Source: a virus
Lineage: Duplodnaviria; Heunggongvirae; Uroviricota; Caudoviricetes
Reading direction: 5' to 3' (one strand)
Virus record (IMG/VR): IMGVR_UViG_2850756110_000003
Length of the DNA stretch: 35,235 nucleotides
Shown: positions 20,146 through 24,554 of the stretch, in pieces
How the letters are laid out: the number at the start of each line of letters is the position of its first letter
Position numbering within the stretch: the first letter of the stretch is position 1
Translations under genes and position numbers: made by a program
The notes under the pieces: generated by a model
Databases searched by the model: none
Told to the model about the DNA's origin: nothing
The model's input: the letters and a program-made list of their open reading frames with translations, nothing else

Positions 20146-20392
20146 AATATCCCCCTGCCCTTACGTTTCCTGCTCCTTCACGCCGCAACCGGATATAACT
20201 ACATCCGCCGTCATCAGGAGTAATACGATCCACGCTGAAAGACTCCCGGCCAATCATCAGCGAATCATTGCGACACAGCTGTAAAATATCTGCCGTTTTC
20301 ACAAACAGGGATGGTAAAGAGTCTTCAATACGCACACCGCCGGCTACCAGAGAAATACTTTCAGGATCGTCAAAAACGCCGGAAATCCGGTG

Positions 20393-21818
20393 TAATGCCG
20401 ATCAGTTAAGGATCAGTTGACCGATCCAGTGGCTGTGTAAGAATCCGGAAACGCTCACTTGTTTCCGGATTTTTTTATGCACATTGGACAGGCTCTTGAT
20501 CTGGTATCCCGTTACGATTCTCTGCGTAACCCACTGACTTCTCTGGGGGATTACCTCGACCCCGAACTCATCTCTCGTTGCCTTGCCGAATCAGGTACTG
20601 TAACGCTACGCAAGCGCCGTCTTCCCCTCGAAATGATGGTCTGGTGTATTGTTGGCATGGCGCTTGAGCGTAAAGAACCTCTTCACCAGATTGTGAATCG
20701 CCTGGACATCATGCTGCCGGGCAATCGCCCCTTCGTTGCCCCCAGTGCCGTTATTCAGGCCCGCCAGCGCCTGGGAAGTGAGGCTGTCCGCCGCGTGTTC
20801 ACGAAAACAGCGCAGCTCTGGCATAACGCCACGCCGCATCCGCACTGGTGCGGCCTGACCCTGCTGGCCATCGATGGTGTGTTCTGGCGCACACCGGATA
20901 CACCAGAGAACGATGCAGCCTTCCCCCGCCAGACACATGCCGGGAACCCGGCGCTCTACCCGCAGGTCAAAATGGTCTGCCAGATGGAACTGACCAGCCA
21001 TCTGCTGACGGCTGCAGCCTTCGGCACGATGAAGAACAGCGAAAATGAGCTTGCTGAGCAACTTATAGAACAAACCGGCGATAACACTCTGACGTTAATG
21101 GATAAAGGTTATTACTCACTGGGACTGTTAAATGCCTGGAGCCTGGCGGGAGAACACCGCCACTGGATGATACCTCTCAGAAAGGGAGCGCAATATGAAG
21201 AGCTCAGAAAACTGGGTAAAGGCGATCATCTGGTGAAGCTGAAAACCAGCCCGCAGGCACGAAAAAAGTGGCCGGGACTGGGAAATGAAGTGACAGCCCG
21301 CCTGCTGACCGTGACGCGCAAAGGAAAAGTCTGCCATCTGCTGACGTCGATGACGGACGCCATGCGCTTCCCCGGAGGAGAAATGGCGGATCTGTACAGT
21401 CATCGCTGGGAAATTGAACTGGGATACAGGGAGATAAAACAGACGATGCAACTGAGCAGGCTGACGCTGAGAAGTAAAAAGCCGGAGCTTGTGGAGCAAG
21501 AGCTGTGGGGTGTCTTACTGGCTTATAATCTGGTGAGATATCAGATGATTAAAATGGCGGAACATCTGAAAGGTTACTGGCCGAATCAACTGAGTTTCTC
21601 AGAATCATGCGGAATGGTGATGAGAATGCTGATGACATTGCAGGGCGCTTCACCGGGACGTATACCGGAGCTGATGCGCGATCTTGCAAGTATGGGACAA
21701 CTTGTGAAATTACCGACGAGAAGGGGAAGGGCCTTCCCGAGAGTGGTAAAGGAGAGGCCCTGGAAATACCCCACAGCCCCGAAAAAGAGCCAGTCAGTTG
21801 CTTAACTGACTGGCATTA
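20393..21818 (+). mobile_element. IS4 copy A (1426 bp) with 13-bp target-site duplication
   Basis: Ends TAATGCCGATCAGTTAAG (20393) and CTTAACTGACTGGCATTA (21818); direct repeat CGGAAATCCGGTG at 20380-20392 and 21819-21831. Confidence 0.9.
20477..21805 (+). CDS. insG: IS4 transposase (InsG)
   Basis: [27 protein letters not shown]... 442 aa; DDE transposase of IS4. Confidence 0.9.
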
Positions 21819-21950
21819 CGGAAATCCGGTGTCCTTTTAACTGGCCTGATGTAATGACTGCAGTAATGCCCATATTGCGAATAATGGCCCTGTCTGCGAG
21901 ATCAAGCGCGGCATCAAACAGATTATCGAAATCAGCCACAATCCCCCCTG

Positions 21951-22334
21951 CTACTGCATTTTTACCAGGTCATCTTTTACCAGACTGGTGGCCATGCCGG
22001 CAGGCACGCGAAACACCGTTTCCGGCAGAACCAGTTTCACTGGCTTATCCTGTGTGGCGTGAAGCGCGTCAATATGCAGCGTCGTCCGTGCCACCACCCT
22101 GACCAGCTCATCCGTATTCTGAATCATCCTCTCCGGCGGAACTGCCTCCCCGTTATTTTCCTGCCCGGTAAGCACACTTGCCTGGTTGTCAGTGCCATCC
22201 ACACCACCAAGCTCCTCTTCCAGCTCTGCCACACGCTGTGCGATATCTGCCGCGCTTCCCGACATATCAGGCTCACGCCCCAGCAATTCTGACAGCTCTT
22301 TCAGACGTTTCAGATTCTCGTCTTTCTTTGCCAT
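21951..22334 (-). CDS. FI: Lambda-like FI (DNA packaging / head-tail connection)
   Basis: 127 aa, ...RVAELEEEL...LHIDALHATQDKPVKLVLPETVFRVPAGMATSLVKDDLVKMQ resembles lambda FI (memory); ATG at 22334. Confidence 0.7.
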   Translation of the reverse strand: MAKKDENLKRLKELSELLGREPDMSGSAADIAQRVAELEEELGGVDGTDNQASVLTGQENNGEAVPPERMIQNTDELVRVVARTTLHIDALHATQDKPVKLVLPETVFRVPAGMATSLVKDDLVKMQ

Positions 22335-22373
22335 ATTTCTTTCCGGTTCAGTAAAAAACGGGGCATACTGCCC

Positions 22374-23799
22374 TAATGCCAGTCAGTTAAGCAACTGACT
22401 GGCTCTTTTTCGGGGCTGTGGGGTATTTCCAGGGCCTCTCCTTTACCACTCTCGGGAAGGCCCTTCCCCTTCTCGTCGGTAATTTCACAAGTTGTCCCAT
22501 ACTTGCAAGATCGCGCATCAGCTCCGGTATACGTCCCGGTGAAGCGCCCTGCAATGTCATCAGCATTCTCATCACCATTCCGCATGATTCTGAGAAACTC
22601 AGTTGATTCGGCCAGTAACCTTTCAGATGTTCCGCCATTTTAATCATCTGATATCTCACCAGATTATAAGCCAGTAAGACACCCCACAGCTCTTGCTCCA
22701 CAAGCTCCGGCTTTTTACTTCTCAGCGTCAGCCTGCTCAGTTGCATCGTCTGTTTTATCTCCCTGTATCCCAGTTCAATTTCCCAGCGATGACTGTACAG
22801 ATCCGCCATTTCTCCTCCGGGGAAGCGCATGGCGTCCGTCATCGACGTCAGCAGATGGCAGACTTTTCCTTTGCGCGTCACGGTCAGCAGGCGGGCTGTC
22901 ACTTCATTTCCCAGTCCCGGCCACTTTTTTCGTGCCTGCGGGCTGGTTTTCAGCTTCACCAGATGATCGCCTTTACCCAGTTTTCTGAGCTCTTCATATT
23001 GTGCTCCCTTTCTGAGAGGTATCATCCAGTGGCGGTGTTCTCCCGCCAGGCTCCAGGCATTTAACAGTCCCAGTGAGTAATAACCTTTATCCATTAACGT
23101 CAGAGTGTTATCGCCGGTTTGTTCTATAAGTTGCTCAGCAAGCTCATTTTCGCTGTTCTTCATCGTGCCGAAGGCTGCAGCCGTCAGCAGATGGCTGGTC
23201 AGTTCCATCTGGCAGACCATTTTGACCTGCGGGTAGAGCGCCGGGTTCCCGGCATGTGTCTGGCGGGGGAAGGCTGCATCGTTCTCTGGTGTATCCGGTG
23301 TGCGCCAGAACACACCATCGATGGCCAGCAGGGTCAGGCCGCACCAGTGCGGATGCGGCGTGGCGTTATGCCAGAGCTGCGCTGTTTTCGTGAACACGCG
23401 GCGGACAGCCTCACTTCCCAGGCGCTGGCGGGCCTGAATAACGGCACTGGGGACAACGAAGGGGCGATTGCCCGGCAGCATGATGTCCAGGCGATTCACA
23501 ATCTGGTGAAGAGGTTCTTTACGCTCAAGCGCCATGCCAACAATACACCAGACCATCATTTCGAGGGGAAGACGGCGCTTGCGTAGCGTTACAGTACCTG
23601 ATTCGGCAAGGCAACGAGAGATGAGTTCGGGGTCGAGGTAATCCCCCAGAGAAGTCAGTGGGTTACGCAGAGAATCGTAACGGGATACCAGATCAAGAGC
23701 CTGTCCAATGTGCATAAAAAAATCCGGAAACAAGTGAGCGTTTCCGGATTCTTACACAGCCACTGGATCGGTCAACTGATCCTTAACTGATCGGCATTA
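22374..23799 (-). mobile_element. IS4 copy B (1426 bp), inverted relative to copy A, no target-site duplication
   Basis: Same terminal repeats as copy A; flanks GCATACTGCCC and CTGACTGGAAC do not match; a few substitutions relative to copy A. Confidence 0.9.
22387..23715 (-). CDS. insG: IS4 transposase (InsG), copy B
   Basis: Near-identical 442-aa ORF (one residue differs from copy A in the track: FVVPS versus FVAPS). Confidence 0.9.
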
Positions 23800-24554
23800 C
23801 TGACTGGAACCCCTCTTTATATTTGCACTTTTCCGCTGAACGATCGCGTCCGGCGGTGGAGCTGCTTGCCAGAGTGCCGCTGGAAAATGTCGAATATGTC
23901 GCCGATCTTGGCTGTGGCCCAGGTAACAGCACCGCCCTTCTACAACAACGTTGGCCTGCGGCCAGGATAACAGGCATCGACTCGTCTCCGGCGATGATTG
24001 CTGAAGCGCGCAGTGCTTTGCCAGACTGCCAGTTCGTGGAAGCAGACATCCGCAACTGGCAACCGGTACAGGCACTCGATCTGATTTTTGCTAATGCCTC
24101 ACTGCAATGGCTGCCTGACCACTACGAATTGTTTCCTCACTTGGTTTCTTTACTTAATCCGCAGGGCGTGCTGGCAGTACAGATGCCAGATAACTGGCTG
24201 GAGCCGACCCATGTGCTCATGCGCGAAGTTGCCTGGGAACAAAACTACCCGGATCGCGGGCGTGAGCCGTTGGCTGGCGTTCATGCTTACTACGATATTT
24301 TGAGCGAAGCCGGATGTGAGGTCGATATCTGGCGAACCACCTACTATCACCAGATGCCGTCGCACCAGGCGATTATCGATTGGGTGACCGCCACTGGATT
24401 ACGTCCGTGGTTACAGGATCTGACCGAGAGCGAACAGCAGCTTTTTCTTAAGCGCTACCATCAGATGCTGGAAGAGCAGTATCCACTGCAAGAGAACGGA
24501 CAGATACTGCTGGCATTTCCGCGTCTTTTTATTGTTGCCCGGCGTATGGAGTAA
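23800..24554 (+). pseudogene. tam: Trans-aconitate 2-methyltransferase (Tam) gene lacking its first 4 nt
   Basis: Sequence after the IS4 end reads CT GAC TGG AAC CCC TCT TTA TAT TTG CAC TTT TCC GCT GAA... = (S)[30 protein letters not shown]...; SAM-methyltransferase motif [10 protein letters not shown]; start codon missing. Confidence 0.8.

Follow-up and report, generated by a model that had tools for sequence, protein, structure and literature searches.

How does an insertion sequence (IS) come to stand, without a target duplication, between a phage packaging gene and an unrelated chromosomal gene? The question is raised by a 35,235-nucleotide stretch of DNA recorded as a virus of the Caudoviricetes (IMG/VR record IMGVR_UViG_2850756110_000003; the whole stretch is called the window here). 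In it, two copies of IS4, referred to as A and B, lie in inverted orientation on either side of the lambda-like gene FI. Copy A interrupts the neighbouring gene FII and is flanked by a perfect repeat. Copy B lacks such a repeat and joins the DNA upstream of FI directly to tam, the gene for trans-aconitate 2-methyltransferase. We conclude that copy B is probably a hybrid, which arose at an old rearrangement breakpoint when two genuine, independent IS4 insertions underwent homologous recombination, because its FI flank is one half of a true IS4 target site and its tam site carries a normal IS4 insertion elsewhere.

Two IS4 copies and a conserved junction

An exact-protein look-up of FI showed that window positions 11951–32334 are 100% identical, over 20.4 kb, to CP026805.1:642299–662682. 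The source names attached to the FI protein, ‘DNA-packaging protein FI [Shigella]’ and S. dysenteriae, are the sole basis of the species name used here. A repeat search, together with a reading of positions 20200–24000, gave a single inverted repeat pair (20392–21821 and 22371–23800), and no further IS4 sequence or fragment besides copies A and B was present in the window. The two copies are separated by 555 bp (21819–22373; table 1) and differ at two of 1426 positions, IS positions 347 (C in A, T in B) and 798 (G in A, A in B), with one amino acid change, A94V, in copy B relative to copy A. Both are canonical IS4: they are 1426 bp long, have imperfect 18-bp terminal inverted repeats beginning TAATGCC (TAATGCCGATCAGTTAAG and TAATGCCAGTCAGTTAAG, matching at 16 of 18 positions in either copy) and encode a single DDE transposase. 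The copy A transposase matches the NCBIfam model NF033592 (transpos_IS4_1) with 303.7 bits against a cutoff of 115, and Pfam places Nterm_IS4 and DDE_Tnp_1 on a protein identical to the IS4 transposase. In length, terminal repeats, single DDE open reading frame (ORF) and strong target preference, the copies resemble IS4 of E. coli K-12 (ISfinder; IS4 family, IS4 subgroup), and they are 99.5% identical to E. coli copies annotated as IS4. The target duplication typical of the element is present around copy A (13 bp) and absent around copy B, which points to a recombinant junction rather than a fresh insertion at B: unlike an ordinary IS4 insertion, copy B has flanks that probably derive from two different insertion sites, hence no duplication. 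As a separate observation, the right inverted repeat (IRR) end of IS4 (22378–22403 and the mirror site in copy A) contains a terminator-like hairpin with an 11-bp stem followed by a T-run, facing inward from the flank, which may stop read-through into the element.

The arrangement tam-IS4-FI-FII-Z was found in approximately 13 assemblies, many of them complete chromosomes, and every genome with this FI has an identical junction, IS4/GGGCAGTATGCCCC(C)GTTTTTT-FI; draft contigs end exactly at the IS4 border. The first-pass annotation of the window had described copy B as lacking a duplication and as joining the last 39 bp upstream of FI to tam, and both the unrelated flanks and the shared junction agree with that description. 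Its alternative, that the junction is an assembly collapse, is ruled out by the same approximately 13 independent assemblies, complete chromosomes among them. One scaffold (L007) joins ldtD to FI through a run of Ns, which looks like an IS4 scaffolding artefact. The structure is missing from all complete E. coli genomes in RefSeq, where no record covered at least 80% of the query; among E. coli complete genomes only FDAARGOS_1249 has an IS4-tam junction, and there it is a simple insertion.

Three further genomes (CP049281.1, CP026762.1 and CP026814.1) read ipaH-DUF4376'-'IS4-tam and align to window positions 2412–5244 and 22630–26455 with a 3-nt overlap. They correspond to the window arrangement minus 17.4 kb (5245–22629); one end of the deletion falls 256 nt within copy B, which has thereby lost its IRR. 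Beyond tam they have tam-yneE-uxaB in native order, with uxaB interrupted by IS3, and then yneF-yneG-glsB-sad-yneJ-yneK, also native; dcp...ydfI-IS1 lies to the left. As these deletion genomes derive from the window arrangement and keep the native yne order, the FI-IS4-tam junction is ancestral to both groups. Its presence in approximately 13 assemblies and its ancestry to the 17.4-kb deletion indicate that copy B is old. In another derivative (L015), copy B is truncated by an IS66-family element.

On the tam side, the right flank of copy B reads CTGACTGGAACCCCTC. The first-pass annotation had tam starting at its second codon; tam is indeed the gene joined, although the sequence begins at the second nucleotide of codon 2, four nucleotides (ATGT) short. 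The end of IS4 (...ATTA) restores an in-frame ATT-ACT, and the NCBI annotation gives a full 252-aa Tam. In E. coli FDAARGOS_1249 the order is lsrF-lsrG-IS4-tam and the flanks are ATGT-CTGACTGGAACC/IS4/CTGACTGGAACC-CCTC, a simple insertion at the same nucleotide as in the window. A look-up of the IS4-fused Tam (MTDWNP...) recovered the same simple-insertion state in CP057525.1, and in CP025842.1 the IS4 at tam points the other way and is flanked by an identical 12-bp duplication. All three genomes have an intact lsr operon upstream of the element. Since both orientations occur, the site has been struck by IS4 at least twice independently. The two IS4 ends both finish ...GCATTA, and insertion at the tam site (23796–23801) turns ATG-TCT into ATT-ACT in either orientation. 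The annotated 252-aa Tam (MTDW...) occurs only in IS4-disrupted alleles and is listed in 140 blocks of the collection; for annotation, this means that a 5'-truncated tam is called full-length in databases from an ATT codon given by the IS end.

The FI side of copy B has the character of an IS4 target as well. The left flank reads ...AAAAACGGGGCATACTGCCC, and from the IRR end outwards GGGCAGTATGCC-CCG-TTTTTT, which fits the right half of an IS4 target. We derived the target rule from 11 IS4 copies with duplications: copy A, the FDAARGOS_1249 copy and nine more, mainly from genome CP065611.1. In 11 of 11 the order is an A-run, 2–4 nt, the 11–13-bp duplication, 3 nt and a T-run, and both half-sites of copy B also conform to these target arms; a T-run at that offset is expected for only 1.8% of arbitrary breakpoints in the window. 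Members of the IS4 subgroup are known for 10–13-bp repeats and a striking (‘spectacular’) specificity for the target arms (PMC2266710, where the mechanism of the IS4 family is also given). The 12–13 bp of the FI half-site form the stem-loop of a terminator-like hairpin, GGGCAGTATGCCC plus a T-run (22373–22361, minus strand), and in E. coli M19 and the enteroinvasive E. coli (EIEC) strain RMDEC332 an equivalent hairpin stands approximately 10–15 nt past the stop codon of capsid gene E. FI and FII follow the order of the lambda head-completion module, with Z, U, V, G, T and H after them, and IS4 takes the position of E; precomputed Pfam matches place PF14000 on an identical FI and PF05354 (Phage_attach) on the intact FII of relatives. 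Because the FI flank is a canonical half-site, we infer that an IS4 once sat in the E-FI terminator and that the E-side half is now missing. No close FI/E relative with an uninterrupted E-FI target was found, the best being 81% identical (E. coli M19) and approximately 71% identical (phages). Each flank of copy B thus matches one half of a separate insertion site, the tam half in three genomes and the FI half by its canonical form.

Table 1. Coordinates of the two IS4 copies and the features that flank them in the window.
Feature	Positions	Strand	Remarks
FII, 3' part	20132–20392	−	lambda-like head-tail joining, Pfam Phage_attach; mapped from the intact 122-aa FII of L003
Copy A target duplication, left	20380–20392		13 bp, CGGAAATCCGGTG
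IS4 copy A	20393–21818	+	complete, 1426 bp; left inverted repeat (IRL) at 20393, IRR at 21818
Copy A transposase ORF	20459–21805	+	448 aa, TTG start
Copy A target duplication, right	21819–21831		perfect match to left copy
FII, 5' part	21819–21939	−	approximately the first 40 codons; cut off from the 3' part by copy A
FI (DNA-packaging protein FI)	21951–22334	−	127 aa, intact ORF between the copies; Pfam PF14000 Packaging_FI
Upstream stretch of FI	22335–22373	−	39 bp between FI start and copy B; holds the terminator-like hairpin
IS4 copy B	22374–23799	−	complete, 1426 bp; IRR at 22374, IRL at 23799; no target duplication
Copy B transposase ORF	22387–23733	−	448 aa; reads away from tam
tam (trans-aconitate 2-methyltransferase)	23800–24554	+	lacks ATGT, Shine-Dalgarno sequence and promoter; databases start it at 23796, ATT
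Retained single copy of the tam 12-bp duplication	23800–23811		CTGACTGGAACC; on both sides of IS4 in FDAARGOS_1249, CP057525.1 and CP025842.1

Gene order and the origin of copy B

E. coli KW21 carries a lambdoid prophage at the same ydfJ site and provides the native order: lysis-head-tail-J-tail fibres-'ydfJ-ydfI-ydfZ-...-mar-...-uxaB-yneE-tam-lsrG. Here ydfI lies between tam and the E/FI site, and these two bracket the ydfI-tail-FI segment that the window retains. The first-pass annotation had taken the head, packaging, replication and lysogeny genes to be lost, presumably through an IS4-mediated deletion or rearrangement. A straightforward deletion, in which all DNA between the FI-upstream site and tam was removed and one IS4 left at the scar, is in keeping with the absence of head and early prophage genes from the window, with the fact that no Shigella-named E homologue turned up and with the frequency of IS-flanked deletions in Shigella, of which the later 17.4-kb deletion at this very locus is a real case. 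However, a simple scar is missing DNA between collinear flanks, and that is not the relation seen against KW21: a deletion from tam to FI would remove the retained tail genes and ydfI, so it cannot make the junction. Deletion would also need the head region to have been brought beside lsrG-tam by earlier rearrangements, none of which is observed, and it does not account for the inverted gapC-trg block beside mgtT, which inversions do explain. We regard it as improbable, and of the two processes originally named it is the fallback, rearrangement, that holds.

In native coordinates FI-IS4-tam is the head-to-tail junction of the tam...FI segment. As IRL lies next to tam and IRR next to FI, the ancestral IS4 pair would have been directly repeated before any rearrangement of the native order. 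The part of CP026805.1 to the left of the window runs, in the same orientation as the window, trg-hokB-ydcA-cybB-gapC'-IS3 family-[3' dgcZ, mgtT]-IS1-dcp-ydfG-rspR-ydfZ-ydfI, continuing as ydfI-IS1-prophage-FI-IS4-tam. Alignment with KW21 showed that the native relative orientation of the gapC-trg block and the dgcZ'-mgtT fragment is preserved, that both are reversed relative to dcp-ydfI, and that the dgcZ'-mgtT fragment is on the wrong side of the gapC-trg block.

The origin that we favour for copy B would begin with an IS4 inserting into the hot spot at tam codons 2–5 and making the 12-bp duplication CTGACTGGAACC, and a second IS4 inserting between capsid gene E and FI, in the terminator hairpin there. 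Homologous recombination between the two would then have swapped their flanks, giving the hybrid that joins FI to tam and a putative reciprocal hybrid that joins E to lsrG. The most economical path would use inversions only: a small IS1 × IS1 inversion of ydeJ-mgtT; an IS3 × IS3 inversion from dgcZ to gapC, of approximately 157 kb, which would also flip the tam IS4; and finally an inversion between the tam and E/FI copies, by then inverted repeats, to give FI-IRR..IRL-tam. These three inversions reproduce all the junctions and orientations seen. The path predicts E-IRL..IRR-lsrG approximately 165 kb to the left of copy B, near 0.49 Mb of CP026805.1, with the flanks lsrG-(N)-ATGTCTGACTGGAACC/IRR...IRL/GG(G)CATACTGCCC-(approximately 10 nt)-stop of capsid gene E, and the partner junctions mgtS'-IS1-ydeJ and dgcZ5'-IS3-'gapC. 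It would fit a genus in which IS expansion, IS4 included, and high rearrangement rates are documented (PMC8072062).

Several points weigh against recombination between two insertions. The reciprocal E-IS4-lsrG junction was not found in exact-pattern scans of genome, metagenome and viral contigs, among which Shigella is hardly represented and CP026805.1 is absent. No genome turned up in which a simple IS4 insertion separates E from FI, and there was no Shigella-named relative of capsid protein E among the 120 best homologues of the E. coli M19 protein. The prophage head genes may truly be absent now. Copy B itself has no sequence marker that proves a hybrid origin. The missing head genes should not be scored as deleted before the predicted reciprocal junction has been checked.

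A one-step origin would dispense with the second IS4. The tam element would have attacked the E/FI target intramolecularly, or through synapsis of ends on sister chromatids, fusing its IRR to the FI flank while the intervening DNA was deleted or inverted. This would predict a canonical half-site at the FI flank equally well, and at tam the junction is still that of a simple insertion. IS4-family elements such as IS10 and IS50 transpose by cut-and-paste, and a lone element normally makes no adjacent deletions, which already counts against the idea. Geometry counts further against it: seen from the element, the native target lies in the direction of tam and past ydfI, and an attack by the lsrG-proximal IRR, whether it ended in deletion or inversion, never yields FI-IS4-tam with both segments native. 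We consider a one-step event improbable as well.

Circle excision with reintegration, or tandem duplication by exchange between directly repeated IS4 copies followed by deletions, gives the same local junctions, and both FI-IS4-tam and gapC'-IS3-dgcZ' are formally head-to-tail in native coordinates; but YneE, YdfI and Tam each returned one place per genome, so that no duplication survives, extra deletions or an extra integration step would be required, and, with an end product that these data do not distinguish from that of the inversion path, such a history seems very unlikely.

Recombination between two IS4 insertions would place copy B among the IS-mediated rearrangement breakpoints described in Shigella, where a complete IS with mismatched flanks stands at a synteny breakpoint (PMC8072062); IS1 and IS3-family breakpoints, pseudogenes and decayed prophages nearby are further points of likeness. 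We see no difference in kind, although this specific breakpoint had gone unremarked, and no paper turned up under the accession numbers. The inverted pair also recalls the composite transposons Tn10 and Tn5, in which two inverted IS4-family elements surround a short central segment with IRL ends outermost. Unlike in those transposons, no single duplication encloses the pair (the outer flanks CGGAAATCCGGTG and CTGACTGGAACC are unrelated), the arms were acquired at different times (most relatives have B at this locus without A), and the ‘cargo’ is a phage gene fragment, with no evidence that the unit ever moved. The phenomenon is routine, already known IS-driven decay of Shigella genomes, and is of little importance except for the record. 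It illustrates cleanly the behaviour of IS4 in Shigella: target choice is strict, a hot spot is reused, and recombination between the copies later scrambles gene order and leaves prophage fragments stranded. Of mild interest is that one 12-bp hot spot was reused in both orientations and that the ATT start is given by the IS end.

Copy A in FII

Copy A is an ordinary recent cut-and-paste insertion into FII of a defective, ipaH-carrying lambdoid prophage. The chance expectation of a perfect 13-bp repeat around the element is approximately 4^-13. The first-pass annotation had read it as a simple insertion in FII and had proposed a comparison with strains lacking IS4 at the site; these provide the exact empty site. 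In the sister assemblies L003, L004, L006, L008 and L010–L012, window positions 19209–20393 abut 21819 onward, with a single copy of CGGAAATCCGGTG and FII intact as a 122-aa ORF; in all, the empty site is present in at least eight relatives, and CP026807.1 is an example of a chromosome without copy A. Copy A occurs at this site in three assemblies (CP026805.1, UYIT01000006.1 and CP026834.1), and the precise empty site in sister assemblies, together with the small number of carriers, indicates that the insertion is recent.

Its source can be narrowed by the two positions at which the copies differ. Copy B has 798A, which is common to genomes without copy A, and 347T, which a subclade shares in addition. 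A sister assembly (L024) has, in a TonB-receptor gene, an IS4 with exactly the nucleotide sequence of copy A. A local origin from copy B is unlikely, as copy A lacks both B substitutions and equals a distant copy; judging by these sequences, copy A probably came from an IS4 elsewhere in the genome and not from the one beside it. An IS4-rich genome offers a parallel insertion (L029, CP065611.1:4282102–4290448), in which IS4 lies in a lambdoid terminase large-subunit gene, between Nu1 and W, with a 13-bp duplication. IS4 lands repeatedly in prophage structural modules.

Inversion of the FI segment by recombination between the inverted pair, which the first-pass annotation had also raised, is possible and unsupported: all three assemblies with both copies have the segment in the same orientation, and the copy A duplication is intact in cis. 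A broader functional reading would make tam codons 2–5 a recurrent, orientation-independent IS4 landing pad, with an ATT start that keeps tam translatable under IS4-dependent control, and the inverted IS4 pair a recombination or invertible module that reshapes the terminus-proximal region. We give this hardly any credence.

Decay of the surrounding prophage

The source chromosome is dense with IS elements. The surroundings of the two copies are typical of Shigella and include two IS1 copies, an IS110-family element, a frameshifted ipaH, a split J and a uxaB fragment fused to a P2-like tube gene. The closest relatives of the tail module (U to J) are the ipaHd prophage of EIEC strains, 98% identical to the window, and the ydfJ-site prophage of KW21, 91% identical; ydfI-'ydfJ next to the tail-fibre end is a shared feature. 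Unlike these Qin-site (ydfJ) relatives, the window has FI-FII-Z from a different mosaic (best matches approximately 81% to E. coli genomes and approximately 71% to deposited phages), and its locus has neither the head nor the early region.

The IS1 copies lie at 1462–2472 and 29563–30330. The left one cuts 'ydfJ to its last 247 bp and replaces the attR region of the prophage; it is itself a junction, because the EIEC prophage relatives match only from 2473 onward. The IS110-family element (17692–19208, 1517 bp; NCBIfam ‘IS110 family RNA-guided transposase’) sits between tail genes U and V, has its ORF split into 164 and 269 aa, and is absent from most relatives, in which 17691 is joined precisely to 19209. 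U is a truncated protein of 74 aa; in some relatives it reaches 133 aa. The tail-tip gene J (7305–10783) is split into ORFs of 791 and 368 aa that overlap at 8408–8411, and the same split is found in all related assemblies.

The prophage ipaH (3076–4538; LRR and NEL E3 ligase) is split into ORFs of 114 and 374 aa, while in UYIT01000006.1, CP049281.1 and CP026762.1 it is intact at 583 aa, which makes the effector a pseudogene in this strain. On the other side of copy B, beyond tam, an in-frame chimeric ORF of 302 aa (25669–26577) begins with approximately 44 N-terminal residues of a P2-like tail tube protein and passes directly into the last 262 codons of uxaB (Mannitol_dh_C). No IS lies at the breakpoint (26455/26456). 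FI-IS4-tam genomes have the fusion; the 17.4-kb-deletion genomes lack it and have a full-length uxaB. The fusion is a later event in the lineage of the window. Just after an IS1, between P2-like gpD and ogr, two adjacent ORFs of 637 aa (30156–32069) and 367 aa (32070–33173) have no match in Pfam, NCBIfam or PADLOC. Both ORFs are conserved in every related assembly and are possibly prophage cargo.

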